Source: a virus
Lineage: Duplodnaviria; Caudoviricetes
DNA length: 57,085 nt
Reading direction: 5' to 3' (one strand)
Virus record (IMG/VR): IMGVR_UViG_3300023105_000039
Coordinates: 1-57,085 of that record
Shown: positions 1,193 through 42,764 of the stretch, piece after piece
Numbering within the stretch: the stretch's first letter is position 1
Layout of the letters: each line of letters begins with the position of its first letter
Notes under the pieces: generated by a model
What the model saw: the letters and a program-made list of their open reading frames with translations, nothing else
What the model was told of the DNA's origin: nothing
Database searches by the model: none
Made by a program: the position numbers and the translations under genes

Positions 1193-1399
1193 TCACTGAT
1201 TGTCGCAGCCGCTGACGAGTTCCCAGCGGTCGGCACGATCAACAAGAAACTCACAAGTGGCGTTGCCGAAAACTGCGGGCTTATTGAACTTGACGTGAAA
1301 AGCGCCCCAGTCCGCATCCCACATAGTGTGCTTGATCACAAGTCCAACTGCGCCATTTAGGCGGTGCTTTACAAGTGACCCAATAGTAATGCGTTCCAA
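1193..1399 (-). CDS. small SH3/KOW-like microprotein (MKVGDLV family, divergent)
   Basis: ITIGSLVKHR...GLVI...WELVS pattern shared with family. Confidence 0.65.
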   Translation of the reverse strand: MERITIGSLVKHRLNGAVGLVIKHTMWDADWGAFHVKFNKPAVFGNATCEFLVDRADRWELVSGCDNQ

Positions 1400-1410
1400 C
1401 TTTTACCCCT

Positions 1411-1671
1411 TTACTTGCGGTAGATCCAGTTGTCCCACCTTTCGTCCACGAACCGCTTGGAGTGACGAAGGGAAGTATCCATCTTTCCTTCTTCAACCAA
1501 CTTAGCAACATCGCGAACCAACTTGATAAGTGCGATCTTTCCGAACTCTGCCTTTACGGAAGGTCCAACAAAGGTCTGGTGGTTCTTGTTGAGAATGATT
1601 GCGATCTCCAAGGCGTCGCGAAGACCCTGTGGGTCGTCGGTGTCGAGGACAATCGTAAATCGTGCGCCCAT
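1411..1671 (-). CDS. hypothetical protein with ribosomal L7/L12 C-terminal-like motif
   Basis: GKIALIKLVRD...SLRHSKRFVD resembles KIxVIKxVR...LKEAKELVE; RBS and promoter upstream. Confidence 0.5.
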   Translation of the reverse strand: MGARFTIVLDTDDPQGLRDALEIAIILNKNHQTFVGPSVKAEFGKIALIKLVRDVAKLVEEGKMDTSLRHSKRFVDERWDNWIYRK

Positions 1672-1693
1672 TCTCTCTCCGTCTTACCCCAGT

Positions 1694-1722
1694 AATGTAA
1701 CCGGGCGATCGTGATCCGTCAA
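1694..1722 (-). promoter_or_regulatory. sigma70-type promoter
   Basis: TTGACG-17-TACATT; two GATC in spacer. Confidence 0.8.
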
Positions 1723-1834
1723 GATCTTTTTTTATGATCTCGGACTCTGGCGCAGAGCGGCGAGCAGCACGACACCTGCGACGATCCCCCAACCGAGAGC
1801 CCGAAAAGGGGTAACAAGTGCCGTGCGTGCTCTT

Positions 1835-2659
1835 TTACACATCTTTCTTGAAATCCTCGAACATAGTGGAACGGATGCTGTCTTCCGTCCACATCTTAAG
1901 TTCGTAGACCGCGTTCTGGTGTCCGTAGGAATCAGGGTTTGCTGCCCTTTCCTTCCAGTTTTCAATGTTGCTGAAAGTCCACTCGCGACTATCTTCGTGC
2001 TTCCTGCCGGTGCGGAGGAAATGTGGGTGCTTTGCGAGAGCAGCAACGTTAGTAGAGTGCTTCTCAATCCACCCAGAAGGCACAGGGTGGGCTTCTGCGG
2101 TAACAAGTTCCACCTTGCGATAGTAACTATTGCTTCCCTCGCCGCGAACATAGCGACGAAGATCGTGGCGGCTGGTTTCGCCGTCAGAAACCCGCTGAAG
2201 CACAATGATAGGGCTTGGGTGGTTGGTCAAAAGATTCGTGTGAACCTCAAACCCAACAGCGACGGCGAGGTGCTTCTTGGTAACATAACCGCTGCTCTCG
2301 TTACACCATTCATCACGGGTCTGCGAAAACAGCGAGCCAATCCCGATCGGGGACGAGACAATGTAGTCGTGGCAAATCTTCACAATCATGTTGTGATGCT
2401 TTGCGTAGAAAACCTTGTCCTTCTCCAAAGTGGAGCACTTGCGGCGGGTGTGCCCGTAGTTGGAACAATAGCCGCACTGCTGGCTACTGACCTTCTTGCC
2501 CTTCTTTGGACCTACGCGCTCGTTGTACTGCTGAACCACCCAAGCGTCGTGGTCGCCACGGGCGATAGCAGCGTCAGCGCGCTCCTTCATGCGCTTGGTC
2601 TTGGTCGGACAAGTGCGCTGGTTATGTCCGGACTGATAGCAATAGCGACAGCGTGCCAT
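1835..2659 (-). CDS. protein with two CCHC zinc knuckles
   Basis: CRYCYQSGHNQRTC and CGYCSNYGHTRRKC; GGAGA RBS. Confidence 0.75.
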   Translation of the reverse strand: MARCRYCYQSGHNQRTCPTKTKRMKERADAAIARGDHDAWVVQQYNERVGPKKGKKVSSQQCGYCSNYGHTRRKCSTLEKDKVFYAKHHNMIVKICHDYIVSSPIGIGSLFSQTRDEWCNESSGYVTKKHLAVAVGFEVHTNLLTNHPSPIIVLQRVSDGETSRHDLRRYVRGEGSNSYYRKVELVTAEAHPVPSGWIEKHSTNVAALAKHPHFLRTGRKHEDSREWTFSNIENWKERAANPDSYGHQNAVYELKMWTEDSIRSTMFEDFKKDV

Positions 2660-2683
2660 GTTCTCTCTCCTTGTTACCCTTGT

Positions 2684-2726
2684 AATGTAACCGATCTCAC
2701 CAAAAGATCAAGTCACCAAATGTCAC
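2684..2726 (-). promoter_or_regulatory. promoter with upstream GTGAC-N5-GTGAC box
   Basis: GTGACATTTGGTGAC-TTGATC-16-TACATT. Confidence 0.65.
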
Positions 2727-2899
2727 TCGTCGGAATCGGGGTGGTAGACGGGATGATCGCCGGGGACGATCGCGATCACCTCAAAAAAGGTCTGTTCCTG
2801 AGCATGGTCAAAAGCAGCCCTCTTATCGTGAGGACCACAAAAAGAGAAAGAAAAGGAGAACTCCCCGTCAGGAGTGATAGTAATAGCAGTCCAAGTCAT
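2723..2899 (-). CDS. hypothetical protein (58 aa, below track cutoff)
   Basis: MTWTAITITPDGEFSFSFSFCGPHDKRAAFDHAQEQTFFEVIAIVPGDHPVYHPDSDE; fills gap on coding strand. Confidence 0.55.
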   Translation of the reverse strand: MTWTAITITPDGEFSFSFSFCGPHDKRAAFDHAQEQTFFEVIAIVPGDHPVYHPDSDE

Positions 2900-2996
2900 C
2901 TTTTATCCTTTTTCTTGATCTTGCGACGTTCGGGGTCGTTTTGCACCTTGTCGGTCTTCTTGGGAACAAACACGACAGGCGGAACAGGAGTAACTC

Positions 2997-3680
2997 TCAC
3001 TTCTTCTTTACCTTTGGCTTGATCTTCATGTAGCGTTCTTCAACAAAGTAAGTCTTCATAGAGCCAAAAGGCAGCACAATGTAACGCTTTGAGCCCTTTG
3101 CGGCAGAAGTGATCTTATCGTCAACACCGATAATGATCCCGCCACGACGCTTAAAGTTCAGTCTTTCGTCGGAATCAGCACGAGCACCACTATCCGTGCT
3201 CTGCATCATTGAGTCATTAAAGGAGTAACCAGTCACAAACTTGGAGTTTGGGACAATCTGGTCGTCAATGGTAAAACGAGGCTTGCGCTCCAACTCGGCA
3301 AGAACCTTCTTTGCGTACTTGTTGTTACGCATTTTAAGGAACTTGCCGCGCGGTGGAATCTTGCCCTCAAGCACCACCTTCACAACGTCACCATAGTAAC
3401 CAGCAGCCTGCGCCTTGTAATAGGTAGCAATCTTGATCGCTGCCTTCTTGTGGTGATTATTGTACTCGTTCTCCCAGTTAGCAAGTTCCTGCTGGGCTTC
3501 CTCGCTGTTCTCCTTGAGAATGCGGTTACAGACAGCCTTCTGGCGATCAGACAAGGTGCGACCCTTGGCGATCTGCTCTCGGATGCTATCAGCGAAGCCA
3601 GCAGACCACTGGTCGCAAGTCGGCAGCCCCTTGATCTTCCCAAGGCGCTCATAAATCTGCTGGTCGGTCAGGTCAGACAT
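2997..3680 (-). CDS. hypothetical protein, possible C-terminal SH3-like fold
   Basis: 227-aa ORF with GGAG RBS and promoter; FTIDDQIV...GIIIGV...YIVLPF...VEERYMK. Confidence 0.75.
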   Translation of the reverse strand: MSDLTDQQIYERLGKIKGLPTCDQWSAGFADSIREQIAKGRTLSDRQKAVCNRILKENSEEAQQELANWENEYNNHHKKAAIKIATYYKAQAAGYYGDVVKVVLEGKIPPRGKFLKMRNNKYAKKVLAELERKPRFTIDDQIVPNSKFVTGYSFNDSMMQSTDSGARADSDERLNFKRRGGIIIGVDDKITSAAKGSKRYIVLPFGSMKTYFVEERYMKIKPKVKKK

Positions 3681-3689
3681 TCGTTCTCC

Positions 3690-3911
3690 TTACTCCTGTA
3701 ATGTAACCGGGGGATCGTCATCCGTCAAGGGCATTTCTGAAATAACTTTCCAGTCATCCTTGTCGGGATCTGTTTTGCAGGTAGAACCTGCGTAATAGCC
3801 AGTGATCTCGCAGATCTCCCACCATCCTGCTTCGTCCTTTCCAACAACAATCCCGATCCCTGTGGGTTCTTCGTAAGAACCGACAAAGCGGACAAGATCA
3901 CCCACTTTCAC
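3690..3911 (-). CDS. MKVGDLV-family microprotein
   Basis: MKVGDLVRF...GIVVG...WKVISE; tail PLTDDDPPVTLQE encodes the next promoter. Confidence 0.75.
   Translation of the reverse strand: MKVGDLVRFVGSYEEPTGIGIVVGKDEAGWWEICEITGYYAGSTCKTDPDKDDWKVISEMPLTDDDPPVTLQE
3700..3728 (-). promoter_or_regulatory. sigma70-type promoter
   Basis: TTGACG-17-TACATT; GATC in spacer. Confidence 0.8.
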
Positions 3912-4080
3912 TAATCACCTTCCAATGGCTCACATCCCAGCCTCTACTGGGAGAAAACCAAGGATCGTCGGTGTTTAGCGCAGTTACCATAATCTTCCAA
4001 CTTCCCACTTTAGCGGTTACAATGCCGATAGTGTTGGGGGAGAGGTTTGATCTGTAGCGAACAAGATCACCAACTTTCAT
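3898..4080 (-). CDS. MKVGDLV-family microprotein (likely start 4080)
   Basis: MKVGDLVRY...GIVTA...WKVISESG; ATGA overlap with upstream stop. Confidence 0.75.
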   Translation of the reverse strand: MKVGDLVRYRSNLSPNTIGIVTAKVGSWKIMVTALNTDDPWFSPSRGWDVSHWKVISESG

Positions 4081-4331
4081 TCTACCTGCTCCAAGTAACG
4101 GAAGAAGCCAATGTCTACGCAACGTTCCTCTCCGTTTACAAAAAAGAAAGCATTGAGTAGTGGGGACTTTTCTGAAATGCCCTCGGGTCTTTCCCACTTT
4201 GTGAGAAGGTAGAACTTACCAATCTCCCACGTTCCTGCGGGTGCTGGATTGTTGTTGTTCACGTCGCCCTTGTAGCGATAAAGACCGCCCACGGGATGAA
4301 GTTTGCTGAAAAGTGCGTAGCCGTTAGCCAT
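4077..4331 (-). CDS. hypothetical protein
   Basis: Likely start MANGYALF at a TAATG overlap. Confidence 0.6.
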   Translation of the reverse strand: MANGYALFSKLHPVGGLYRYKGDVNNNNPAPAGTWEIGKFYLLTKWERPEGISEKSPLLNAFFFVNGEERCVDIGFFRYLEQVE

Positions 4332-4681
4332 TAGAAAGAAATGCTCCGCTGGACGCAAATGTCGGGGTGTGCAAAGCCGTCGTGCTCGTTGTCGTCGCAG
4401 TCGTCGCCATAACGAACAAAGCGGTGAGCGTTGCCGTCAAACTTGCTCTCAATCGCGTGCATCATTTGCATAAACAATGCGATGCCGGGGTGACCTTCTG
4501 ACCACTTGATCCAGCCCCAGTGAAAGAGGTAAGAACCAGCGGTATCGTAGTCGCCAAGGTGGCGCGTGTCGGTCTGGACGAAAAGCAACTGCTTTAGCGC
4601 AGGGTGCTTCCCGCACCACGCAAGCAACGTAGGAACAGCGTCAGCCTCGATGGCGAAAACAACTTCACTTCTGTAACCCAT
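4331..4681 (-). CDS. hypothetical phage protein (MGYRSEV...FVRYGDD type)
   Basis: ORF with RBS and promoter. Confidence 0.7.
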   Translation of the reverse strand: MGYRSEVVFAIEADAVPTLLAWCGKHPALKQLLFVQTDTRHLGDYDTAGSYLFHWGWIKWSEGHPGIALFMQMMHAIESKFDGNAHRFVRYGDDCDDNEHDGFAHPDICVQRSISF

Positions 4682-4705
4682 AGTCTCTCTCCTTCTTACT
4701 CTGGT

Positions 4706-4747
4706 AATGTATCCCGGTGATCGCAGATCGTCAAGTCACGGAATGTC
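4706..4747 (-). promoter_or_regulatory. promoter with upstream GTGAC box
   Basis: GACATTCCGTGAC-TTGACG-17-TACATT; two GATC in spacer. Confidence 0.8.
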
Positions 4748-4951
4748 TCTGACTTCGATCTCCCAAGGTCGCACCCACTCGCGCCCGTTCCTACGCAGAC
4801 CGAGAGGAACAGGCGACTTATCAGGCATAAACCAATGAACCAAGAACCAGTCCTCATTGTCTGGATCGTTCTCGATCACATCAGTTTCTACGATAATGCC
4901 GTAAAGGTTCTGAAAAGCGGTGGACTGAATGTAATCACCGACTTTCATCAT
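4736..4951 (-). CDS. MKVGDLV-family microprotein
   Basis: MKVGDYIQ...GIIVE...VHWF...EIEV. Confidence 0.7.
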   Translation of the reverse strand: MMKVGDYIQSTAFQNLYGIIVETDVIENDPDNEDWFLVHWFMPDKSPVPLGLRRNGREWVRPWEIEVRDIP

Positions 4952-5112
4952 TCCTCCGAAAGTGGCTTGAGTTCATCGTCATCAACATACCAAACACTCC
5001 CGTCTTCAAAATCATAGACAAGCCAATCCCAATCGCTTTTGCCTTCTTCGATGATTAGTCCCTTCCAAGGAAGGTGGTTTGCCTCAACAATCACAAGGTC
5101 ACCTACTTTCAC
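4948..5112 (-). CDS. MKVGDLV-family microprotein (54 aa, not in track)
   Basis: MKVGDLVIVEANHLPWKGLIIEEGKSDWDWLVYDFEDGSVWYVDDDELKPLSEE. Confidence 0.7.
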   Translation of the reverse strand: MKVGDLVIVEANHLPWKGLIIEEGKSDWDWLVYDFEDGSVWYVDDDELKPLSEE

Positions 5113-5459
5113 TACAACTTTCCCTTGTGGTTAGAGTTGCCAAAGTTCTCGCCAACACGACGAAACTTCATGCCAGACATAGCGGTGTTAGACTGGGAAA
5201 GATGGCAAGACTTGCCCTTGTTCATCCCAGTATTGTTATGCCAAGCCTTCTTGTACTTTTCTCGGTCCTCGGCGGAATCAAACGCAAGGATCGTGAGCCC
5301 CGCCATCTTCCCATCAGCGCCATTCACAGCGAGGTAGGGCACAGCCGTCTCCTCGGCACAATCAGGACAATGATTGCGAAGACCGCCTGCACGCTTCTTC
5401 TCGGCAGAGTGAAGGTCAAACGGGTCTTCGCACACAGCGCAGTCAATCATCGTCGGCAT
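5112..5459 (-). CDS. zinc-ribbon protein
   Basis: CAVC...HCPDC; GGAGG RBS. Confidence 0.7.
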   Translation of the reverse strand: MPTMIDCAVCEDPFDLHSAEKKRAGGLRNHCPDCAEETAVPYLAVNGADGKMAGLTILAFDSAEDREKYKKAWHNNTGMNKGKSCHLSQSNTAMSGMKFRRVGENFGNSNHKGKL

Positions 5460-5507
5460 CGTTCCTCCTACTCCACTAACATAGCACGGGGATCGTCTTC
5501 TGTCTTG

Positions 5508-5774
5508 TCACGGATTGTCATCGTCAATCGGGACGACGTGTTGCCAAATGTTAGGGTAAGCCCTCAACTCCTTTCCGCGATAAATGACCTTTCGCGAACC
5601 ATAAAGGTCTTTGCCAAGATAGATAATGTGATCGAAAGGTCGCACCTTTGCTTCTGCCGTAAAATGTCCGTGACCGAGGTGAATGTCGAGAAAGTGGTCG
5701 CTGACGCGAACGTGCGTTTCTCGGTCAGACCTGATCTTGTAGAGTTCTCCGACCTTTAGTTCTGAAACCTTCAC
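5508..5774 (-). CDS. SH3-like microprotein (LKVGELY variant)
   Basis: MKVSELKVGELY...IIYLG. Confidence 0.65.
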   Translation of the reverse strand: MKVSELKVGELYKIRSDRETHVRVSDHFLDIHLGHGHFTAEAKVRPFDHIIYLGKDLYGSRKVIYRGKELRAYPNIWQHVVPIDDDNP

Positions 5775-6013
5775 ATTTCCTCCACTGGTTCAATCTTGCG
5801 CCATTCGGTCGGACACATAGCAAGCCTTTTGCCTCCAATAAGACACCATCTTGTAAGGAATCCACCGGTACGGTCTTCACCAAGATAAACCATAAGTCTG
5901 CTGTTAAGGCGCTTTCCCCAATCAACATAAGCATAATCCTTTACAAAACCAAAGTCGTGACTTGGGCTCTTGGGTCGGTAAAGAGCACCAACTTTGAGAT
6001 CCTTTACATACAT
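5771..6013 (-). CDS. SH3-like microprotein (LKVGALY variant; likely start 6013)
   Basis: MYVKDLKVGALY...MVYLG; resembles 5508..5774. Confidence 0.65.
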   Translation of the reverse strand: MYVKDLKVGALYRPKSPSHDFGFVKDYAYVDWGKRLNSRLMVYLGEDRTGGFLTRWCLIGGKRLAMCPTEWRKIEPVEEM

Positions 6014-6014
6014 T

Positions 6015-6194
6015 CTACCACTCCGTAGTCCAACCGGACAAAGTAAATGTTGTTGCTGCGACACCTTCGTCGTCGCCCTTTTCTTCCTTTCTCACAAACC
6101 AAGAGAGAAACTGAAGATCTTTCGCAATCTGCTCTGCGATCTTCTCTGGATCGCTTGTGTCCCCGAAAGGAATAACAAACTGAATCTGCTCCAT
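6015..6194 (-). CDS. hypothetical protein (59 aa, not in track)
   Basis: MEQIQFVIPFGDTSDPEKIAEQIAKDLQFLSWFVRKEEKGDDEGVAATTFTLSGWTTEW; GGAGGCATAATG coupling. Confidence 0.6.
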   Translation of the reverse strand: MEQIQFVIPFGDTSDPEKIAEQIAKDLQFLSWFVRKEEKGDDEGVAATTFTLSGWTTEW

Positions 6195-6361
6195 TATGCC
6201 TCCGAGAGAACTTTGAAATTTGAAGCATAGCCAGTTTCTACCACACCGATAGAAGGAAGCCTAATGTAGCAAACGAAAGAATAGTTATTTCTTCTAAAGC
6301 ATTTCACAACAATAGCACGATAACCATATCCCACGTTCTCGACAAGATCACCGACTTTCAT
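6194..6361 (-). CDS. MKVGDLV-family microprotein (55 aa, not in track)
   Basis: MKVGDLVENVGYGYRAIVVKCFRRNNYSFVCYIRLPSIGVVETGYASNFKVLSEA. Confidence 0.7.
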   Translation of the reverse strand: MKVGDLVENVGYGYRAIVVKCFRRNNYSFVCYIRLPSIGVVETGYASNFKVLSEA

Positions 6362-6546
6362 TATGCCTCCGAAACAAGGTCGTATTCCAGATGGGCGATG
6401 CGATACACGGGCTCAACGATAAAAGAGTCTGCGAGACGCACAAGGACATAGCGGTCCAACCCGAAATCTCCCTTGCCGCGAGCCGTGACCATCCACAGAT
6501 CACCGAGACAATCTCTTAGCAGCGTGCCGTCGCGATAGAGTTCCAT
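6361..6546 (-). CDS. microprotein ending LVSEA
   Basis: GGAGG RBS, promoter, family-type C-terminus. Confidence 0.65.
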   Translation of the reverse strand: MELYRDGTLLRDCLGDLWMVTARGKGDFGLDRYVLVRLADSFIVEPVYRIAHLEYDLVSEA

Positions 6547-6565
6547 TCGTCCTCCTTACCTCTGT

Positions 6566-6609
6566 AATGTAGCACGGGGATCGCAGGTCGTCAAGTCACG
6601 GAATGTCAC
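6566..6609 (-). promoter_or_regulatory. promoter with upstream GTGAC-N5-GTGAC box
   Basis: TGTGACATTCCGTGAC-TTGACG-17-TACATT. Confidence 0.8.
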
Positions 6610-7430
6610 AGGCGAATGTGCCTGACCTTCACGCCCTTGGCTTTCACCTTTTCTTTTATCATTATGCGTTCTCGGTTGGAAAGAGGAACTTCCGAGTTGA
6701 AATCAGAAATGACTACTAATGTCTGCCCTGCTTCCATTTTATCAAGAACATTCCAGAGCGCAAACCAGATCTCTGTGCCTCCGTTGGGTCTTATGTTCTG
6801 TAACATAATCCAAGCAGGCAGATAACCAGTGTTGGCGACATAGACTTTTGCGTGTTTTGGTTTCCAATAAGCAATCGCATTCGTCCACCTAATCCAATCT
6901 TCACCAGCCATAGATCCAGAGGCGTCAATGAGGTAGAAATCGGCTATTATTTTGGGTGGGGTGATTGGTTGTTTGGATTTTTTGAGGACAGCCACGTCCA
7001 CTCTGCGGGCTCTAATCGTGTGTTTTCCTGTTGCTTCGCCCTTCCATTCTAACTCTACAAGCGCACCTTCTCTGAGGGACATTATGTAGCGGGCAACTTC
7101 GTTTGCCCTTTTGCGCGAGAGTTGGCGATTGTAGGAATGGTCGCCGCATCCGTCAGTAAAACCTGTAACGATGAACCTATCGTGGGTGGGGTGGCTGTCC
7201 AAAAAGTCTTTTATTCTCTTGCGTAGTTCGTAATGTAGATAGAACTGATCTTCTTCATAAAAGATAGAGGTTTCTTCTTTTGTTGTGTTCTCGGCAAGTT
7301 GCGCCACAGGATCTCCAACGGAAACCTCTGTGACGCAACCCTCAAGAGAACACCTACTTTGCGCGTCGCCTATCGTTATCCAGTTTGGCTGGAGTTGTAA
7401 GAACAGGCTAATCGCAATAGTTGAGAACAC
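6606..7430 (-). CDS. exported OmpA-like peptidoglycan-binding domain + vWA domain protein
   Basis: Hydrophobic N-terminus; IVTGFTDGCGDHSYNRQLSRKRANEV...RRVDV (OmpA C-terminal); LIDASGSM...GGT...VVISD (vWA MIDAS). Confidence 0.75.
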   Translation of the reverse strand: MFSTIAISLFLQLQPNWITIGDAQSRCSLEGCVTEVSVGDPVAQLAENTTKEETSIFYEEDQFYLHYELRKRIKDFLDSHPTHDRFIVTGFTDGCGDHSYNRQLSRKRANEVARYIMSLREGALVELEWKGEATGKHTIRARRVDVAVLKKSKQPITPPKIIADFYLIDASGSMAGEDWIRWTNAIAYWKPKHAKVYVANTGYLPAWIMLQNIRPNGGTEIWFALWNVLDKMEAGQTLVVISDFNSEVPLSNRERIMIKEKVKAKGVKVRHIRL

Positions 7431-7441
7431 AAACTAAATAG

Positions 7442-7729
7442 TCAGGCAAGTCGCGGGCACTCACCTTCTACCAGCCCGCCGTGAGCGATAATCATCTTGC
7501 GAACAACAGCAGCAGGCACATAAGCATAGACCGTTTCAGTCAGCCTACTTGGGTCTTCTGCGTAGTCCTTGATGAAAATGCACGGGCGGTTAGGAAAGCC
7601 CAACTCAACGGACTTGTAGGCAACAGCGGAATCACTACGGGGCTCGCAATAAGCACCATCGTGCGCCTGAATAGAAATTGAGAAGCCGTCAGCGAAGACA
7701 GCACGCTTGTAGCGGTGGGAACTTGCCAT
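7442..7729 (-). CDS. hypothetical phage protein
   Basis: DGFSISIQA...YCEPR...VELGFP...TVYAYVP...HGG; GAGG RBS. Confidence 0.75.
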   Translation of the reverse strand: MASSHRYKRAVFADGFSISIQAHDGAYCEPRSDSAVAYKSVELGFPNRPCIFIKDYAEDPSRLTETVYAYVPAAVVRKMIIAHGGLVEGECPRLA

Positions 7730-7851
7730 TTTTTACCTCTCAGCACATAAAGATTGTGATAACGAAAAAGATACTAACAATGCTGACTACAATTCCAAGG
7801 TCAGCCATAAAATCTCGATCCATTTGATCTCCTTAGAAGGGAGTAATTAGT

Positions 7852-8028
7852 TCATAAAGCCTCGGAAAGCACGCGCAAGTGGGTGCGAAAGTTTGCCTCT
7901 GTAAAGGCAGGCACACAAAGCCACGCAACAATCGGGTCGTCGTCTTCGTCAAAGGACACGATGATGCCGCGCTGTCGTCTTTTGGGGCTTTGGAATCCAA
8001 CAAACTTTACAAGATCACCGACCTTCAC
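7852..8028 (-). CDS. MKVGDLV-family microprotein (58 aa, not in track)
   Basis: MKVGDLVKFVGFQSPKRRQRGIIVSFDEDDDPIVAWLCVPAFTEANFRTHLRVLSEAL. Confidence 0.7.
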   Translation of the reverse strand: MKVGDLVKFVGFQSPKRRQRGIIVSFDEDDDPIVAWLCVPAFTEANFRTHLRVLSEAL

Positions 8029-8197
8029 TAATCACCTCGAATTCGCCGTCTCTAAGCCAATACTTTTTGTTCTTGGAAACAACATAGATCTGTACGTCCT
8101 CGGGGGCGTCTATGGCGTCTATGATGATGCCGTGTGTCGGGTGGTGGCGGTCTGGCTCCCAAGGCAGCCAGCATTTTACAAGATCACCGACCTTCAC
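8015..8197 (-). CDS. MKVGDLV-family microprotein
   Basis: MKVGDLVKC...GIIID...FEVISEGR. Confidence 0.75.
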   Translation of the reverse strand: MKVGDLVKCWLPWEPDRHHPTHGIIIDAIDAPEDVQIYVVSKNKKYWLRDGEFEVISEGR

Positions 8198-8375
8198 TAA
8201 TCACCTCCAACTCGTCAGGACGAAAGTTATGAACTACTCGCGTGCCCTTGATTTCTCCTGAGAGCCAAAAGATAGAAAAAGAACCATCGTAGGCTTGATC
8301 GACAATCACAGCAACAGAGTTGCGCTGCGGCTTGATGTTGGTTTTAGAGCCTCGGACAAGATCACCGACCTTCAC
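8184..8375 (-). CDS. MKVGDLV-family microprotein
   Basis: MKVGDLVRG...AVIVD...LEVISEGR. Confidence 0.75.
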   Translation of the reverse strand: MKVGDLVRGSKTNIKPQRNSVAVIVDQAYDGSFSIFWLSGEIKGTRVVHNFRPDELEVISEGR

Positions 8376-8526
8376 TGATTACCTCCAAATCGCGGGCAGG
8401 GTAAGAACCAAAGATCATAAGATCAAGCCAGTAAACCTTGGTGTAACTTGCTGTGCCGGGATAAGTGTTCAGAACGATGCCTGTTGAGTTCGCTCTATTG
8501 TGCCTAACCAAATCACCGACTTTCAC
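8362..8526 (-). CDS. MKVGDLV-family microprotein (GTG start 8526)
   Basis: MKVGDLVRH...GIVLN...VYWL...LEVISEGR. Confidence 0.75.
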   Translation of the reverse strand: MKVGDLVRHNRANSTGIVLNTYPGTASYTKVYWLDLMIFGSYPARDLEVISEGR

Positions 8527-15306: not shown

Positions 15307-15768
15307 TCAAACGTTTTTGATCAAACTTGTGGGATGCCAGACTTCTCTGTTCTTATGCCACTTGCAGGGTCTATCTCCATAATCGGAGGGTGCCTTGAGC
15401 CACCTTACAAGTGAGAAGTCTGTCTTTAGTTTTGTAATCTTCGCGCCGAACTTCTGGTAAGAATAGGCTGTGTTGTAACTAAAGAACTGCTTGATTAGTT
15501 CGTCTTCTACGTTTGGTTTGTTTCTCTGGATCTGTTCTCGAATACCTTGAGTTGCGTCTGTTCGTAGAGTCCAAAGCATACTGAAGTTATTATCGCCGTG
15601 GAACATGTATTCTGGATGCTTGCGGTCATACAACTTATGCCAAGCGTCTACGAGATCGAACTCTGCATAAAAGTTCACATCTTTTACACGTTCTAAGACA
15701 AGTCCTTGTCCTTTGATGTTTCTCCTACTCATGCAGACAAGAGAGCCTGCGTCAATTCGTTTGGCCAT
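15307..15768 (-). CDS. hypothetical protein (SH3-like ends around an insert)
   Basis: GSLVC...GLVLE...LVRWL. Confidence 0.65.
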   Translation of the reverse strand: MAKRIDAGSLVCMSRRNIKGQGLVLERVKDVNFYAEFDLVDAWHKLYDRKHPEYMFHGDNNFSMLWTLRTDATQGIREQIQRNKPNVEDELIKQFFSYNTAYSYQKFGAKITKLKTDFSLVRWLKAPSDYGDRPCKWHKNREVWHPTSLIKNV

Positions 15769-16008: not shown

Positions 16009-16020
16009 ATAATAATTATG

Positions 16021-18042: not shown

Positions 18043-18045
18043 TGT

Positions 18046-35917: not shown

Positions 35918-35946
35918 AATGTAACCGGTCAGGCGGCTGCTGTCAA
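35918..35946 (-). promoter_or_regulatory. sigma70-type promoter overlapping purA end
   Basis: TTGACA-17-TACATT. Confidence 0.8.
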
Positions 35947-36936
35947 GGGATTTTCTTCGTGGATCGTGTGAGGGTTGTCAGAGAAATAGATCTTCTCGAT
36001 CCCTAGTCTCCGACTGAACTCGTCCGTGAGGTGCTTGCGGAAGTGACGCTCGCCGTGAAGGCGGCGCTCTGTGGTTCCCCAAGTGTCGATCTCGCGTAGA
36101 ACGTCCATCTTGTTGACTACAAGGCGGTTCACGCCATTCATGTCAATTGCCTGACGCACTTCCCTTGTGTTGATCCAGTTACACTGACGGACGCGACCTG
36201 TCGTAGCACCAAACTCAGCACCAACCTGCTGAATCTGATCAAACACAGCGTCGTCGGGCTGGAACTTACGCTTTCCAACATAAGTCTCGTAAGCCTTGAT
36301 AATGCCCCAGACATTGCGGATAGAGCGTGGGTTGATTCCGTTTTGGAGGGCTGCTGCTGTTCCTGTGTGTGAAGACGTTACATAAGGGTAGTCACCCCAG
36401 TCTGGGTCAAGCCAGAAGCCCTGTGCCCCCTCCATTAGGATTACAGAGTCTCCAGAAAGTTCCTCATAAATGTCGATAATGAAGGAATGAAGTTCGGGAA
36501 TCTCACCAGCACGTACCCCACGGCGAGCATACTTATCCCTGTAAGCGGGTCCATTTCCCGTCTTAGTGGTTCCAATTCGTTCATCTGTTCCGTCCTGCGC
36601 CTTGTGTAGCGAAGTGATAATGTGTGCGTTTTCCGCAATCTTTAGGTGATCTCGGACGTTGATGCCGTGAGACTCAAGATACTCTATTTCTTCAAAGAGT
36701 TTGACTGGATCGACCACGCAGCCGTTACCAATAACGGATGTAACACCAAAGAACACGCCAGCAGGAATGTGATGGGTAACCAACTTAACGCCGTCGTGAT
36801 AGATTGTGTGTCCAGCATTGCATCCCCCATTGAAGCGAACGCAGTGTGTGTATTCGCCACTCTTAAGTAGGTGGTGGGCGACCTTTCCTTTACCTTCGTC
36901 TCCGTGCTGAAGACCAATAACAATGTCGGTAATCAA
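35929..36936 (-). CDS. purA: adenylosuccinate synthetase (short form; TTG start at 36936)
   Basis: GLQHGDEGKGK, GGCNAGHT, IGTTKTGNGPAY, EGAQG, YPYVTSS, GATTGR; GGAGG RBS. Confidence 0.9.
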   Translation of the reverse strand: MITDIVIGLQHGDEGKGKVAHHLLKSGEYTHCVRFNGGCNAGHTIYHDGVKLVTHHIPAGVFFGVTSVIGNGCVVDPVKLFEEIEYLESHGINVRDHLKIAENAHIITSLHKAQDGTDERIGTTKTGNGPAYRDKYARRGVRAGEIPELHSFIIDIYEELSGDSVILMEGAQGFWLDPDWGDYPYVTSSHTGTAAALQNGINPRSIRNVWGIIKAYETYVGKRKFQPDDAVFDQIQQVGAEFGATTGRVRQCNWINTREVRQAIDMNGVNRLVVNKMDVLREIDTWGTTERRLHGERHFRKHLTDEFSRRLGIEKIYFSDNPHTIHEENPLTAAA

Positions 36937-37052
36937 GTTTCCTCCTTGTTTCTGAACTTGTACCAATACTTTAACATGGGAACGGAACTGATGCAACTAA
37001 AAAGTGCCATCCATTCTCCGTGGCAGTTGAGCAGATGCTCCATTTAAGACCT

Positions 37053-37869: not shown

Positions 37870-40800
37870 TTAGCCTAGCAATCTAAAGTTTCTGTAGAGA
37901 GACCTCGTTGAGAAACCCCATTTTGGATCGTAATCCAGTCGCGACATGTAGGGGCGGTTGATCTGAATGCTATCCTTCTTTGGATCAATGCCCCAACACT
38001 TAATCTTTTCTGTCTCGTTGTTTGAGTCAATAACCTCAACAATCCAGAAGTCCTTGCCCTTCTTTGTCTTTCTCGGAACAACCTTGCGTGGGATAAACCA
38101 GCAGATCTGTAGTTCCTCGTCAAACTCGGAAATGGGTGGAATGTACTTGTCCTTCAGTTTCTGGATAGTCTCGGGACTAATGACCAAGTTCATTGGGAAC
38201 ACGCCAGTCAATTCAGTCTTAAACTGGATGATCTCTTCCTCTGAGAAGTCGCCTTCTGGTCTGTAGAGATCAATGTTGTCGTGGAACTTCTTCTTGGTCT
38301 TCGGACGATCAATCACGGACGCACACCAGAAGTGCTTGCGACCTGTGAAGCGGTCGTCAATTAGACTATCCATTGCTCCTGCCCTACAGAGGGCGTCAAG
38401 TGCCTTCTTGTTTAGTTTAGCATACTTTACCTCTTCTCGGAACAAGAAATCCTCAATGTCCGTGAATGGGCGATTATCAAGCACCTGCTCCATTGCAGAC
38501 TCACCAAAGCCCTTGATGCTTGTGAGGGGCTGGATAAGAGTCTTGCCGTCGCTAGTAATCTCCCAAGTCCTACCGGATGTGTTCACGTCTACGGGCGCAA
38601 TCTTGTAGCCAAGAGACTTAGCAATGTTGATTGCGTTCTCCTTCTTGCTCTCGGGCTCTTTGTCGAGGAAAGCAGCAAGCCACTCTGCCTCGAAGTAAGT
38701 TAGGAGCCAAGCGCACTGATAAGAAATGATAGAGTAGGAAACAGCGTGGGATTTGTTGAAACCATAGCCAGAGAAGTATTCAAACTTCTCCCATAGACCC
38801 TGTGCTTCACTTCTAGCGATGCCCTTCTCCACACAACCATCAATGAACTTCTTGTGGATCGCATCCTTGACCTCAAAACCCTTTCCGGTTCCCTTCTTAG
38901 TTAGGAGTTTGCGGAGCAAGTTACCCTCGTCAAGAGTCAAATCCTTACCAAGTGCGTGAGCAATCTTGGCGATTTGTTCCTGAAAGATCAAGAAACCAAA
39001 CGTTTCTTCGGTGATCTCCTGCACCTCTGGTGTGAGATACTTGATGTACTGAGGGCTTTCCTTGGCGTCAATGTAATCCTCGTGGACGTTAGCCGATAGA
39101 GGACCGGGACGATAGATGGAAGTGATAGCGGAAACATCAATGATGTTGTTTGGCTTTACTCGCTCTGCGAAGTTCTGCGCTCCGTCCTCGGTGAACTGGA
39201 AAGTGCCTACGAAGTTGCCCTTATGGAAAACATTTTTGTAGACTCTCGCGTCATCGAGGTTGATAACGTCAGGGTGAAGGTTGTTGTCGTAGAAGTCCTT
39301 GACCTGCTTGAATGTTGGTTCTGCAATGCCGTGGTGGCGCTTGAGAATCAACTCAATAGCAGTCTCCATCATAGCAAGGGTCGAGAGACCAAGAAGATCG
39401 AACTTGATGAAGCCCATTGGTTCAAGATGGCGAACGTTCTGTCCCTCGGACCAAGGCGTCTGACGAACGCCCTTGGAGTTGATAAGGGGCATGTTCTTGT
39501 CTAGATCCTCGGCAATCACAACACCGCCAGCGTGACGAGACGCAGAGCGAACCTGACCGACGAGAGCACGGACGTGTGTCTTGACGTGAGGATACTTGCT
39601 CAAGAATCCCTTGAGAGAACTTGAGAACTCAAGCACCTCTTCCCAAGTTGGGGTGTACATTCCTGCCTTGATGCCGTGCTTCTGCTTGGCGAGAGGCGTT
39701 GCCTCCTTAATCATAGCGTTGGTTACGAGATTGACCTCGCTGAAAGGAATCTGATAGAGTTTGGAAATGTCCTTGATAAGAGACTTCAACTGGAGAGTGT
39801 TCCAGTTAGAGATTGGAGCAACACATTCCTCACCCCACAACTCAATCAACTTGTCCTTCAGTTCCATTGGGCGACTAATGTCATAATCAATGTCTGGGTA
39901 ATCCTTGGCGTCAGAACGTAGGAATCGTGAGAATAGAAGGTCGTACTTGATTGGATCGACCTGTGTGATCCCAAGAGCATAGGCAACAAGTGAACCAGCG
40001 GCAGAACCACGACCGGGACCTGCAAGCATCATTGTGTCTGTAACGTCTACGATTGCCTTCATAGTCAAGAAATACTTTGAGAAGCCTCGGTCGTCAATGA
40101 CGTGGAGTTCTTCTTTTAGTCTCGCAAGGTACTGCTTGTTGTCGGCAAGACCCAACTTACGCAGACCTTCAAGTGAGAAGTTGATTAGCGCCTCAGTTGC
40201 GGTGTGTCCTGCGGGCACAACGAATGAAGGAAGGCGAACAGTGTTATCTGGAAGGAAGTTCTCAATGCGATCAAACGCGATTCGGTGTGTCTCTTCAATA
40301 GAACGCAACACAAGGTCGTCATCGTAGTCAGTATTACACAACTTAGAGTAGTGCCTGTAGGACTCCCACATCTCGTCACCATTCTTGGGATAGAGTTCGT
40401 AACCAATCTCGTCAACAGAGACAGGCAGATCGCTCTCGGTGTCTGCCCACTGCGGGCGACCCTTACCAAGCCAACCCAAGCGCTTGTAGAGTTCTCGGTC
40501 CTTCCAAGCATCACGATTGGGGTAGTGCGAGTCTGCGGTCGAGATCACCTTTACACCAAACTCGTCACAAACCTGAATAACAAACTTGTTTAGTTCGTGC
40601 TGCTCTGGGACATTGTTCCACTGAATCTCGCCGTGCCAGCGATCACCAAAGATGTCCACCATCTGGCGGGTTGTCTCTCGCATAGCCTCAAGCACAGCCT
40701 CTGGTCCTTCCTCTCGGTTCTCCCAGTAGTTACCAGCATAGACGCCGCCAAGGCAAGCGGAGGAAGCAATAATGCCCTCGCTGTGATCCTTGAGCATCTT

Positions 40801-41310
40801 GTAGTCCATTCGAGGATAACGATAGAAGTTCTCGTCCTTGTAACTCTCGGACACAAGTTTGAAGAGGTTGTTTAGTCCCTTCTGGTTCTGAGCAAGAAGA
40901 ACGAGATGGCGACGGCGGCGTAGAATGTTGCTGCTTTTGCCCTTGCTCGCGCCTTCGTCTTCAACAGAGGCAGCAGAAGCACCAGACTTCTTGGCTTCGC
41001 GTGCCTTCTTCTTATCCTGCATTGCCTGCTCGTATTCATCCTTCCATTCATCAATAGATGGAATGAAGTAAGCCTCGCAACCAAAGATAGGCTTGAAGTC
41101 CTTGCCTTCTGCCTTCATCTTCTTAGCGTGTAGCACCTGATAAGACAGACCATTCATGTTCCCGTGGTCGGTCAGAGCAAGCGCATCAGACCCGTTGGAG
41201 TAAGCGAACTCCATGTGGTCCTGTGGGAAGCCGAGCCCATCAAAGATAGACCCAGCGACGCTGTGGGCGTGTAGCCCAACAAACTTGATTTTACTTTCTT
41301 TTCTTTCCAT
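37870..41310 (-). CDS. dnaE: DNA polymerase III alpha subunit (family C)
   Basis: PHP HAHS...TDHG; GPGRGSAAGSLVAY, PDIDYD, HAGGVVI, KFDLLGL, YGFNKSHAVSY. Confidence 0.95.
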   Translation of the reverse strand: MERKESKIKFVGLHAHSVAGSIFDGLGFPQDHMEFAYSNGSDALALTDHGNMNGLSYQVLHAKKMKAEGKDFKPIFGCEAYFIPSIDEWKDEYEQAMQDKKKAREAKKSGASAASVEDEGASKGKSSNILRRRRHLVLLAQNQKGLNNLFKLVSESYKDENFYRYPRMDYKMLKDHSEGIIASSACLGGVYAGNYWENREEGPEAVLEAMRETTRQMVDIFGDRWHGEIQWNNVPEQHELNKFVIQVCDEFGVKVISTADSHYPNRDAWKDRELYKRLGWLGKGRPQWADTESDLPVSVDEIGYELYPKNGDEMWESYRHYSKLCNTDYDDDLVLRSIEETHRIAFDRIENFLPDNTVRLPSFVVPAGHTATEALINFSLEGLRKLGLADNKQYLARLKEELHVIDDRGFSKYFLTMKAIVDVTDTMMLAGPGRGSAAGSLVAYALGITQVDPIKYDLLFSRFLRSDAKDYPDIDYDISRPMELKDKLIELWGEECVAPISNWNTLQLKSLIKDISKLYQIPFSEVNLVTNAMIKEATPLAKQKHGIKAGMYTPTWEEVLEFSSSLKGFLSKYPHVKTHVRALVGQVRSASRHAGGVVIAEDLDKNMPLINSKGVRQTPWSEGQNVRHLEPMGFIKFDLLGLSTLAMMETAIELILKRHHGIAEPTFKQVKDFYDNNLHPDVINLDDARVYKNVFHKGNFVGTFQFTEDGAQNFAERVKPNNIIDVSAITSIYRPGPLSANVHEDYIDAKESPQYIKYLTPEVQEITEETFGFLIFQEQIAKIAHALGKDLTLDEGNLLRKLLTKKGTGKGFEVKDAIHKKFIDGCVEKGIARSEAQGLWEKFEYFSGYGFNKSHAVSYSIISYQCAWLLTYFEAEWLAAFLDKEPESKKENAINIAKSLGYKIAPVDVNTSGRTWEITSDGKTLIQPLTSIKGFGESAMEQVLDNRPFTDIEDFLFREEVKYAKLNKKALDALCRAGAMDSLIDDRFTGRKHFWCASVIDRPKTKKKFHDNIDLYRPEGDFSEEEIIQFKTELTGVFPMNLVISPETIQKLKDKYIPPISEFDEELQICWFIPRKVVPRKTKKGKDFWIVEVIDSNNETEKIKCWGIDPKKDSIQINRPYMSRLDYDPKWGFSTRSLYRNFRLLG

Positions 41311-41489
41311 TATTTTGCCTCCGATAGTAGTTTGAGAATCCGATAATTGTGTTTACTAATCACGCCTTTTCTTGTGGGAGTGTCGGTGGTTAGCCACCTG
41401 ATGGTGTTAGTCCCGAACTCATCAAAAGAGAGAACTACACCAAAGCACCAAGGGTAGTCCCTGTGTCTTACCAGATCACCGACTCTCAT
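41310..41489 (-). CDS. MKVGDLV-family microprotein (59 aa, not in track), coupled to dnaE
   Basis: MRVGDLVRHRDYPWCFGVVLSFDEFGTNTIRWLTTDTPTRKGVISKHNYRILKLLSEAK; TAATG overlap. Confidence 0.7.
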   Translation of the reverse strand: MRVGDLVRHRDYPWCFGVVLSFDEFGTNTIRWLTTDTPTRKGVISKHNYRILKLLSEAK

Positions 41490-41511
41490 TACAATCCCTC
41501 CTTACCCCTCT

Positions 41512-41540
41512 AATCTAACGGGTGATCGCCCTCCTGTCAA
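41512..41540 (-). promoter_or_regulatory. sigma70-type promoter
   Basis: TTGACA-17-TAGATT; GATC in spacer. Confidence 0.8.
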
Positions 41541-41613
41541 GGGCAGAGCCGAAGAATAAATAGTGAGGGCAGCACCCAAAACGAGCGCTGCCCTCGGAAA
41601 GAATTTGGTTATT

Positions 41614-42015
41614 TTAGTTAGCGTTTGCTTGGTTGACAAAAAGGCACTCTTCTGCCTCAATCAACTTGTCTTCTGCTCTGTCTACAACTTTGTTCAACTG
41701 GTCTAGGTGAAACTCTGCTGAGTCAAGGTTCTTTCTGTCGATTGACTCTAGAACTAGATTGTACTCAGTTCCAGCAGATTGTCCTAGCATGTGGATAGCA
41801 CTTACGCTAGAGTCTACGCACTTGTAGGAGTTCATTTCTTCCATAAAGATTGCGTCTGTGAGAACCTCGTCGGCTTCCTCAGAAATAAGGTCAAATCGAT
41901 CCATCTCTTGTTCTAGTAGGATTTCGATCTTTTCTGTTGAACCAGTGTCCTCTTTTGGTGCGACCTCGGTCATGGGGGCATTCATGCCAGCGATTAGAAA
42001 CATTAACTTAAACAT
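41614..42015 (-). CDS. exported-type helical protein with two Cys
   Basis: Short hydrophobic N-terminus; KCVD...EAEEC; AAGGAG RBS. Confidence 0.6.
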   Translation of the reverse strand: MFKLMFLIAGMNAPMTEVAPKEDTGSTEKIEILLEQEMDRFDLISEEADEVLTDAIFMEEMNSYKCVDSSVSAIHMLGQSAGTEYNLVLESIDRKNLDSAEFHLDQLNKVVDRAEDKLIEAEECLFVNQANAN

Positions 42016-42093
42016 TGTGAAACTCCTTCTTAAGTGTTCTAATGTTATTAACGGAATCCGATCGCATTTACATTAGGGGTGATCCTATTTTTT

Positions 42094-42255
42094 TTAGGTC
42101 TCGGAGAGAAGGGTGAGTTTATGGGCTAGAAGGGTGTGTAGTTGCCCTTCGATCATTACCTCTACAACATAGCCCACCATAAATTTCTTCTTTTGTTCTC
42201 CGACTATGACGCCGATCTTTTTGTCGGAGGTCATAACCAGATCACCGACTTTCAT
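42094..42255 (-). CDS. MKVGDLV-family microprotein (53 aa, not in track)
   Basis: MKVGDLVMTSDKKIGVIVGEQKKKFMVGYVVEVMIEGQLHTLLAHKLTLLSET. Confidence 0.7.
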   Translation of the reverse strand: MKVGDLVMTSDKKIGVIVGEQKKKFMVGYVVEVMIEGQLHTLLAHKLTLLSET

Positions 42256-42440
42256 TATGCCTCCGATAGTAGAATAAGATTTCTTTCGTCAAAATTGGTC
42301 GCTAGTCTAGGGAAAGTCTGTTGGTCTAGCCAGAGAATTCTGTGACACCTGATCTTTCCACCAGAATAGGTGATAGTGTGGGTAATAAAGCCGTGCCTGC
42401 CTTTATGGTTTCTGTGACAAACCAGATCACCGACTTTCAT
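42255..42440 (-). CDS. MKVGDLV-family microprotein (likely start 42440)
   Basis: MKVGDLVCH...GFITH...ILWL...LILLSEA. Confidence 0.75.
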   Translation of the reverse strand: MKVGDLVCHRNHKGRHGFITHTITYSGGKIRCHRILWLDQQTFPRLATNFDERNLILLSEA

Positions 42441-42570
42441 TATGCCTCCTTGCTGCTGGCTTCTCAAACCAAACATTACATTTTAGGCAGCCCGGCTGTG
42501 GATAGAACCCACCTACATAGCGATAGAAGGTCTTGGAATTACATTTTGGACAAGAATGATAATGGCTCAT
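42427..42570 (-). CDS. zinc-ribbon peptide (47 aa, not in track)
   Basis: MSHYHSCPKC...GCLKCNVWF...; lies between junction repeats. Confidence 0.55.
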   Translation of the reverse strand: MSHYHSCPKCNSKTFYRYVGGFYPQPGCLKCNVWFEKPAARRHNESR

Positions 42571-42764
42571 TATGCCTCCGATAGTAGTTTGAGTTGTCTT
42601 TTATTACACCATTGATCTCGCTTTACTCTTTCTCCAAACATCCAGTTATGATAAGTCCAGACAACAAAAACAATTTCTTGTGTTCTTTTTGAGTTGTTCT
42701 CGGGAACTTCCATAATGAAGCCTTTGTTGCCCCAAGAATCTGTTACATAATCACCGACTTTCAT
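42570..42764 (-). CDS. MKVGDLV-family microprotein (likely start 42764)
   Basis: MKVGDYVT...GFIME...VVW...LKLLSEA. Confidence 0.75.
   Translation of the reverse strand: MKVGDYVTDSWGNKGFIMEVPENNSKRTQEIVFVVWTYHNWMFGERVKRDQWCNKRQLKLLSEA

Follow-up and report, generated by a model that had tools for sequence, protein, structure and literature searches.

Predicted KOW-like mini-proteins in dual-coded gene arrays that vary by whole genes among relatives of an uncultured large phage

PeSL (promoter-early stem-loop) cassettes, found in the hyperplastic regions of T4-type phages, were described by Arbiol et al. in 2010 (PMC2839356) and reportedly by Comeau et al. in 2014 (PMC4122927). Integrons are arrays of small, mostly promoterless genes of the same orientation, which lie behind a promoter and are exchanged at a short repeated site. 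Both bear on the mini-genes analyzed here, a family of paralogous open reading frames (ORFs) whose products start with MKVGDLV or a close variant and which are found in 57,085 nucleotides (nt) of phage DNA (the window), the whole of the IMG/VR record IMGVR_UViG_3300023105_000039. The window, with a CheckV completeness of about 31%, is a 57-kb fragment of the genome of an uncultured phage, the full genome being about 190 kb. By analogy, and judged from the accessible part of the article, PeSL cassette shuffling appears to be the nearest described system (PMC2839356). It resembles the present arrays in that short regulatory DNA is repeated between small non-essential genes and in that relatives differ by insertion, deletion, or replacement of whole genes, and the window likewise carries 15 copies of a repeated sigma70-like promoter, predicted from sequence. 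Unlike PeSL as described in that part, the main repeat is here an intercistronic stop/Shine-Dalgarno/start overlap of about 14–25 nt that codes in both neighbors, the genes being shuffled are members of a single protein family, and no promoter-terminator unit is evident, terminator-like hairpins not being enriched (21 in a scan of positions 1–17000 against 16.9 ± 3.5 expected). The bounded events seen here lie at intercistronic junctions, not demonstrably at promoters. The likeness to integrons lies in small-gene arrays of one orientation that stand behind a promoter and are exchanged as units at a short repeat. On the other hand no integrase or attC-like structured site turned up here, no search having been aimed at either, and the repeat is a translation signal within coding sequence.

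The explanation that we favor, on balance and with some reserve, is that these genes encode KOW-like paralogs in dual-coded, exchangeable arrays and that their products bind diverse targets early in infection. The junctions would couple translation of neighboring genes and, being repeats common to the cassettes, would also serve as recombination sites at which whole genes are deleted, inserted, or reordered, presumably by general or phage recombination. Most likely each protein would be a small module, produced early for takeover or counter-defense, that binds a host or phage macromolecule of its own. The anatomy of the family and its junctions is solid, whereas the early host-takeover or anti-defense role is only what we infer. 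A more specific proposal, which we put forward tentatively as possible though not probable, is that of an integrase-free cassette system in which the dual-coding junction of about 14–25 nt acts as translational coupler and universal recombination joint at once. If so, any cassette would fit any array and be expressed at once, and large marine and estuarine phages would share and reshuffle KOW-like binders, hundreds of variants in a pan-viral library, for takeover or counter-defense. It would be a compact design for cassette exchange, with expression signals and recombination homology in the same few bases, kin in spirit to PeSL yet working via overlapping codons.

A motif scan of both strands found 16 ORFs starting with M[KNR][VI]GD[LY][VI], all on the minus strand and 50–73 amino acids (aa) long, seven of them shorter than 60 aa (members are named below after the position of their start, and every window feature given coordinates lies on the minus strand). 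The back-translated 20-nt start pattern occurred 11 times against 0.00 expected from 100 shuffles. A hidden Markov model (HMM) built from the 16 members (alignment A1) recovered exactly those 16 from the six-frame translation (E ≤ 1.6e-13), the next-best frame being 1399 with E = 0.14. Among 388 ORFs of 40–170 aa compared by hhalign with a family alignment (A2), the 16 members scored at least 97.6% and were followed by 1399 (75.7%), 14506 (36.0%), 5774 (26.5%), and 16008 (23.5%), while the ORF containing 6013 scored 5.6% and the best of 206 plus-strand ORFs 9.6%. When orthologs from related contigs were aligned and compared with the family, 1399 (5 sequences) rose to 95.1% and 16008 (10 sequences) to 95.5%. 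In these sequence comparisons the 21 starts from which the initial annotation had counted about 20 MKVGDLV ORFs amount to 16 firm members, two distant relatives, and three unsupported starts; the family is real, but 14506, 5774, and 6013 were rejected as members, their HMM and hhalign support being too low. The start given there as 4951, an ATG, and the start at 4948, one codon downstream, are alternative in-frame starts of one gene. The two distant relatives, w1399 (1193–1399, 68 aa) and w16008 (15769–16008, 79 aa), have conserved orthologs, the former in five related loci and the latter likewise in related loci. Two of the rejected starts belong to adjacent small ORFs, 5508–5774 and 5771–6013, whose products start MKVSELKVGELY and MYVKDLKVGALY and which appear to be a separate paralogous pair; the first of them has one clear ortholog in the related genome G006.

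The members are joined by two main kinds of junction. Type A, GAGGT-N5-(A/G)TGAA(A/G)GTCGGTGA, takes the form GAGGTNNTNA-GTGAA(A/G)GTCGGTGA in a chain of five genes, 8731 > 8526 > 8375 > 8197 > 8028, and also joins the pair 4080 > 3911. Here the following gene has GAGG as its Shine-Dalgarno site and GTG as its start, and its Gly4 and Asp5 codons contain the TGA at which the upstream gene stops, giving a 14-nt overlap. In other words EVISE(S/G)R and stop, the C-terminus of the upstream gene, arises when the Shine-Dalgarno site, the start codon, and the MKVGD codons of the downstream gene are read in another frame. The chain is headed by w8731 (8513–8731, 72 aa, ATG start, ending EVLSESR), which lies behind the promoter copy at 8753–8782, and continues with w8526 (8362–8526, 54 aa), w8375 (8184–8375, 63 aa), and w8197 (8015–8197, 60 aa), each starting with GTG and overlapping both neighbors by 14 nt, to the last gene w8028 (7852–8028, 58 aa, GTG). 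The four junctions of the chain (GAGGTNNTNAGTGAARGTCGGTGA, starting at 8015, 8184, 8362, and 8513 and spanning 8015–8536) each hold a Shine-Dalgarno site, a start, and the upstream stop in 14 nt of overlap, and the 24-nt type-A pattern, with four copies in the window, has an expectation of 0.00. In the pair, w4080 (3898–4080, 60 aa) ends VISESG and overlaps the start of w3911 (3690–3911, 73 aa, GTG) by 14 nt.

Type B is the 14-nt sequence TCGGAGGCATAATG, which gives the ending LSEA; TCG GAG GCA TAA followed by TG provides GGAGG together with a TAATG stop-start overlap. It occurs in four exact copies (6192 and 6359, spanning 6192–6372, with further copies at 42253 and 42568) and in a variant at 41311 ahead of the DnaE gene, against 0.04 expected. 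One copy lies on each side of w6361 (6194–6361, 55 aa). To the right, w42764 (42570–42764, 64 aa) is the first gene behind the promoter at 42811 and is followed by a zinc-ribbon ORF outside the family (CPKC...CLKC; 42427–42570, 47 aa), w42440 (42255–42440, 61 aa), and w42255 (42094–42255, 53 aa), the last with a TAATG junction upstream. The zinc-ribbon ORF ends NESR because of its 14-nt overlap with ATGAAAGTCGGTGA, the start of w42440. w41489 (41310–41489, 59 aa) is the first gene behind the promoter at 41540 and would be coupled to the DnaE gene. Of the remaining members, w14231 (14079–14231, 50 aa) is the first gene behind the promoter at 14282 and ends FEVI followed by TAATG, w13530 (13327–13530, 67 aa) has ATGA overlaps of 4 nt on both sides and no SE ending, and w4948 (4736–4948, 70 aa, C-terminus RDIP), which belongs to a conserved subfamily, is found next to w5112 (4948–5112, 54 aa, GTG).

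Outside the window, 115 related loci (about 1 Mb) were gathered with the junction DNA motif, and a separate set of loci was anchored on the MoxR gene; the protein encoded at 6606–7430, tried as an anchor as well, found no related loci. The 865 HMM matches in the 115 loci come down to 618 unique genes whose start could be recognized. The next member is found at exactly −14 for 249 of the 618, at −4 for 23, and at −1 for two, and 405 of 603 genes have in front of them an ORF, at least 45 codons long, whose end falls in the gene's own GGTGA. The last four residues of the upstream protein track the codons of the next gene, SESR going with GTG AAA GTC, NESR with ATG AAA, NASR with ATG CAA (MQVGD), SEGR with AAG, and SENR with ATC. 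Codon choice points the same way: among the 481 genes not chosen by the search motif the Gly4 codon is GGT in 428, compared with 771 of 2611 internal Gly codons, and Val3 is GTC in 272, while Leu6 and Val7 use many codons without such a bias. GGT is also kept at Gly4 in 147 of 198 genes without an overlapping upstream ORF. Pooled synonymous divergence (dS) is 0.32 in codons 2–7 and 0.34 in the last eight codons compared with 0.73 in the middle. As the upstream tail is spelled by the downstream start signals, the constant ends are partly dual-coded translation signals and partly the barrel strands beta1 and beta5. The (V/L)(I/L)SE ending pointed out in the initial annotation is therefore real, but for the most part it reflects the Shine-Dalgarno and start signals of the gene that follows, read in another frame, and not a protein motif. 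If the favored explanation holds, motifs at protein ends can be frame-shifted images of a neighbor's translation signals, and motif-based annotation should allow for it. In a genome collection of 185,579 species the full 27-nt type-A junction was found in only two contigs (L120 and L121), which come from metagenome-assembled genomes labeled Flavobacteriales and Legionellales (11 kb and 84.5 kb); both are likely to be phage sequence that ended up in bacterial bins, and the labels were not used to name a host.

The promoter pattern TTGAC(A/G)-N17-TA(C/G)ATTA is present in 15 copies, all on the minus (coding) strand, compared with 0.02 expected. In addition to 8782 it starts at 1095, 1722, 3728, 4734, 6594, 14282, 15297, 16467, 34957, 35946, 37340, 41540, 42811, and 55134. 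In the left 17 kb the copies at 4734, 6594, 8782, and 14282 lie within a longer conserved cassette (about 70 nt), (c)tgtgacattccgtgac-TTGACG-N17-TACATTA-cagaggtaaggag, with TGA stops in the upstream part and a fixed leader plus Shine-Dalgarno site. Upstream ORFs run into this cassette, which gives them shared C-termini: the RDIP tail of w4948 is translated from the conserved upstream portion of the cassette at 4734, and the C-terminal extension PLTDDDPPVTLQE of w3911, with its stop, is the promoter at 3728–3699 (TTGACG-N17-TACATTA) and an AGGAG Shine-Dalgarno site read in frame. The statement that many members sit right behind sigma70-type promoters has to be narrowed: the 15 copies would drive operons, but only four of the 16 members (8731, 14231, 41489, and 42764) are the first gene behind one, the other twelve being internal to operons. 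From the sigma70-like form of the promoter it may be inferred that the mini-gene operons are expressed early. One metatranscriptome contig matches 7955–8177 without mismatches and bridges the w8197/w8028 junction, although it may be DNA carry-over. A different type of promoter was seen in the tRNA cluster, where three near-perfect copies of TTGACA-N17-TATAAT / TACAAT (11738–12511) differ from the TA(C/G)ATTA type ahead of the mini-gene operons.

Among relatives whole genes are gained, lost, and reordered. Copy number and order, the comparison of which was proposed as a check in the initial annotation, both vary, with 14–28 copies in all eight related records (27, 22, 23, 28, and 22 family matches in the fragments G001–G005, and 14, 26, and 18 in G006, G009, and G010). 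One comparison is provided by G006, a complete record of 191,359 bp that is syntenic with the window at a nucleotide identity of about 72–81% and has a DnaE 89% identical to that of the window. All 14 members of G006 lie inside positions 120–56733 of its 191 kb. Only four of the 16 window members have a clear ortholog there, w41489 (90%), w8028 (62%), w4948 (57%), and w5112 (48%), and the last is displaced in the array, located between the counterparts of w4080 and w3911 and not ahead of w4948. The window block 42764–41505 with its three members (w42764, w42440, and w42255) is missing in G006, which has one extra member ahead of DnaE, and the five-gene chain 8731–7852 corresponds to two genes. 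The 10 loci, the window included, that have a flank of at least 7.6 kb upstream of the MoxR gene hold 3–16 members within 8 kb of it.

Individual events could be placed at the junctions. In an estuary contig the 167 nt between 6191 and 6359 are missing (side 38), so that w6361 is removed exactly; the joint, checked in the sequence, lies inside the 14-nt repeat TCGGAGGCATAATG. In two salt-marsh runs contigs jump from 8716 back to 8361 (sides 86 and 172), with the joint within 14 nt, and so have a w8731-like gene after w8526. Most other read joints (for example 8027 to 8512, 4080 to 8362, and 5113 to 8513) had sides shorter than 31 nt and were not counted. Homology breakpoints were taken as the internal points at which an alignment between loci (identity at least 88%) ends; 42 of 135 were within 20 nt of a family start, compared with 8.4% for nearby random points.

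The proteins belong to a family that is common in viral sequence and carries no name. The Pfam scan of ten window members gave a best E of 0.059, none at threshold, with no match to Pfam KOW (PF00467) at E ≤ 1, and the same ten had nothing in PHROGs at E ≤ 0.01. When 131 family members were scanned no Pfam family was touched by more than five, YccV-like matching five (best E 6.6e-4), KOWx two, and KOW one (E 0.0037). By sequence, then, the family is not filed under Pfam KOW, the KOW matches being below significance. A profile search of 1.84 billion cluster representatives found 642 proteins at E ≤ 1e-3, each representing a cluster at 50% identity, and a word-indexed search added 82 further family proteins; these library proteins have no Pfam domain and no name beyond "hypothetical protein". 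Nearly all of the 150 best library matches are 48–91 aa long and aligned end to end. A few are fused multi-repeat forms (P0121, P0103, P0022, and P0097), namely a 430-aa protein with five (F)KVGDYVRCV repeats and 117–205-aa proteins with two family domains, as expected if a junction stop were lost. Two members, P0031 and w8028, were searched by tblastn in 50,697 phage records, and neither had a match (cutoffs E ≤ 0.01 and E ≤ 1). Matches in BFVD all had E of at least 1.7e-3, the best being unnamed UniProt viral proteins of 25–28% identity, and in the ESM Atlas 29 of 30 matches were without a Pfam family and fell in viral "hypothetical protein" clusters, one cluster being 52% SH3-C_UBE2O. No paper containing "MKVGDLV" was found and keywords brought up nothing relevant in the literature within reach, which leaves a mention in supplementary files possible. 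With 642 representatives, up to 28 copies per contig, and no Pfam or PHROG model, a large unnamed family would, if the favored explanation holds, be added to the viral "dark matter".

The family consensus, MKVGDLV...G(I/V)(I/V)V...V.W...LEVISESR, contains the G(I/V)(I/V) strand noted in the initial annotation, which is present in the alignment as well. Conservation per column is confined to residues 1–7 (beta1), G-I-I-V (beta2), V.W (beta3), and L-E-V-I-S-E (beta5 and tail); the remaining columns have an entropy of 3.4–4.0 bits, near maximal, and insertions are confined to three loops. AlphaFold2 models were made of w8375 on alignment A2 (131 sequences) and of w4948 on a separate subfamily alignment, A3 (30 sequences). 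Both have five strands in the same order, with a predicted local distance difference test score (pLDDT) of 85.5 and 82.7, respectively, so that members folding differently was not seen. The best structural match of the w8375 model was the Spt5 KOW domain of M. jannaschii (Z 9.3, root mean square deviation 1.6 Å, 57 of 63 residues), followed by human DSIF KOW6-7 (Z 8.3), then NdhS, PsaE, and NusG (Z 7.0–7.2), Tudor, PWWP, and chromo domains and YorP, where a Z of 7–8 is common among small folds. With Foldseek both models gave the same fold classes at E of at least 0.03, KOW, Tudor, PWWP, SH3, CAP-Gly, and chromo domains recurring across the searches, and the w4948 model also matched the Tudor-like domains of Mfd, CdnL, and UvrD. 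When the A2 sequence profile was compared with the PDB, Spt5, uL24, and NusG made up seven of the top eight matches (E 0.012–0.27). The models, the structural matches, and this ranking are the reason for naming the predicted fold a KOW/SH3-like five-stranded beta-barrel, in line with the SH3/KOW-like barrel that had been suggested from the sequence pattern. A homodimer prediction for w8375 scored 0.04 against a mark of 0.42, which counts neither for nor against binding.

As in KOW domains (PF00467; NusG/Spt5, uL24, and eL14), the barrel comprises five strands in about 55–60 residues and the family has a (V/I)GD(L)V...G(I/V)(I/V) pattern at beta1-beta2. Unlike KOW domains, the family proteins stand alone, without an NGN domain or ribosomal context, and there are 14–28 paralogs per phage genome; all 16 window members are stand-alone ORFs and none is found within NusG/Spt5 or a ribosomal protein. 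To our knowledge the YorP, YccV/HspQ-like, and DUF2158 families of phages and bacteria are single-copy and not known in overlapping arrays, and YorP of B. subtilis is presumably of SPbeta origin. YorP (PDB 2heq) is similar to the present proteins in size and fold (Z 6.6, Foldseek TMq 0.65), and the YccV/HspQ-like (PF08755) and DUF2158 proteins are small, SH3-like, and likewise of similar size and fold, but none of the three has a significant sequence relationship to the family. If the favored explanation is true, such small single-domain barrels, with their free loops, would lend themselves well to screening for binders of host RNA polymerase, ribosomes, or defense proteins.

The variable cores were compared in 67 gap-free pairs (dS 0.05–1.5; 102 genes). 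The ratio of nonsynonymous to synonymous divergence (dN/dS) had a median of 0.24, the cores alone likewise gave 0.24, and no pair was above 1, so that orthologous pairs, compared pairwise, are under purifying selection. An RVT_1 search that picked up its controls detected no reverse transcriptase in either the window or the complete relative G006. Taken together, the purifying dN/dS and the lack of a reverse transcriptase in these two genomes indicate that the cores represent old, maintained divergence and not ongoing hypermutation. The cores had been called hypervariable, and the middles are indeed close to maximal entropy, but this reflects old divergence of paralogs under purifying selection. 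When 826 core sequences were clustered they gave 434 clusters, of which 308 were singletons, in a sample biased by the route of collection. At the same time there are broad subfamilies, such as the FDEDDDPIV group to which w8028 belongs (54 members from 51 sources) and that of w4948 (about 25 proteins at 84–99% identity).

Other explanations deserve to be weighed against early binders of diverse targets. Constant ends and very variable middles resemble the targets of diversity-generating retroelements, and targeted hypermutation of the cores by such an element or something similar, on a constant scaffold, was therefore considered. We regard it as extremely improbable, given the missing RVT_1 in the window and G006, the many indels in the cores, synonymous change that is saturated (dS 0.73) next to a dN/dS of 0.24, and the stability of orthologs across relatives. 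It is also conceivable that all copies share one function, the face formed by beta1 (MKVGDLV) and beta5 (LEVIS) mimicking NusG/Spt5 KOW or Tudor-like RNA-polymerase-binding domains and docking on the host transcription or translation machinery, with the variable loops merely tuning. Tudor-like domains of Mfd, CdnL, and UvrD bind RNA polymerase. For UvrD, and for UvrD only, the title of PDB entry 7egs names its C-terminal domain with an RNA polymerase lobe. That the w4948 model matches these three domains, that Spt5/NusG KOW domains are the best fold matches of the w8375 model and, with uL24, top the PDB list of the sequence profile, and that conservation is limited to beta1 and beta5 would all fit such a shared target. 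We nevertheless find it quite unlikely: much of the conservation of the ends is explained by dual coding (codon bias in codons 1–5 and halved dS at the ends), 14–28 paralogs for one target are hard to explain, isoelectric points spread from 4.1 to 9.7, and the KOW sequence matches are all below significance, with only one of 131 members touching Pfam KOW.

A selfish or near-neutral expansion, in which the shared junction eases duplication and transfer of cassettes whose proteins fold but add little to infection, explains other features of the arrays. It would account for the high turnover (four of 16 clear orthologs in a relative with 89% identical DnaE), the 308 singletons among 434 core clusters, and the lack of a conserved surface beyond the core and the ends, and it has a parallel in the dispensable ORFan region of cyanophage S-PM2. 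This region, 13% of the ORFs of that phage, was lost on passage, its carriage being costly to laboratory fitness, according to the part of the article consulted (PMC4503421). It is harder to reconcile with a core dN/dS of 0.24 and none of 67 pairs above 1, with subfamilies conserved across many sources (54 FDEDDDPIV members from 51 sources, and 84–99% identity in the w4948 group), and with the 14–28 copies retained in all eight related records, and we consider it rather unlikely. Exchangeable arrays of KOW-like binders remain the explanation that we favor, and several points weigh against it. Most of the joints seen in reads, beyond those in the estuary and salt-marsh contigs, are short-sided (less than 31 nt) and may derive from other arrays with the same motif. 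The 135 breakpoints are not independent, and a conserved junction beside a divergent core could mimic their pattern without recombination. The related loci were gathered by the junction motif itself, which biases the counts toward arrays that carry junctions. Within the window only five of the 16 members are entered via a 14-nt overlap from an upstream member, in addition to w42440 from the zinc-ribbon ORF, so that the cassette picture is less pure here than in the relatives. The RNA signal amounts to three contigs of one metatranscriptome (5 of 30 bins covered), possibly carried-over DNA. Pairwise dN/dS is blind to positive selection at specific sites, and the 67 pairs share genes and are not independent. 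Finally, the isoelectric points of the window members are bimodal (4.1–9.7), which suggests, as computed from sequence, no single class of ligand.

The mini-gene arrays at the left of the window are placed between the gene for a MoxR-type AAA ATPase (2–1006), located at the left end and 59–89% identical in amino acid sequence across 27 related loci, and that for an OmpA-like protein (6606–7430). In the latter protein OmpA is the sole called match, and its vWA-type character is seen by eye only, as a DxSGS motif resembling the metal-ion-dependent adhesion site of vWA domains. The DnaE-type polymerase (Pol III alpha) gene next to w41489 spans 37870–41310. Other products of the window are a GroEL-like chaperonin (26001–27578, E 2.1e-64), an LRV/HEAT-repeat (leucine-rich-repeat-variant) protein of 829 aa (50905–53394), a DnaB-like helicase, a RecA-like protein, and a class II ribonucleotide reductase, and there are eight tRNA genes.

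Sequencing runs of 20 studies, which sampled salt marsh, estuary, and seawater, contain DNA nearly identical to the window. Against GenBank phages, megablast of positions 1–20000 gave only tRNA-sized matches, and the window DnaE had at most 31% identity, hence no close relative there; among cultured phages none has a DnaE above 31% identity either. A T4-type major capsid gene was found in G006, in G009 (293 kb, with terminal repeats), and in G010 (267 kb), so the lineage pairs a DnaE-type polymerase with a T4-type gp23 capsid gene (161436–163061 in G006) in genomes of 190–290 kb. The psbA gene was looked for in five related records, two of them complete, and was absent, which gives no sign of a photosynthetic cyanophage. 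A 355-aa protein encoded at 35929–36996 in the window matches phrog_1211, "2-aminooxy adenylosuccinate synthetase" (PurZ/PurA-like), with E 9.5e-66, a hint that the DNA made by the phage may contain 2-aminoadenine (Z-base).

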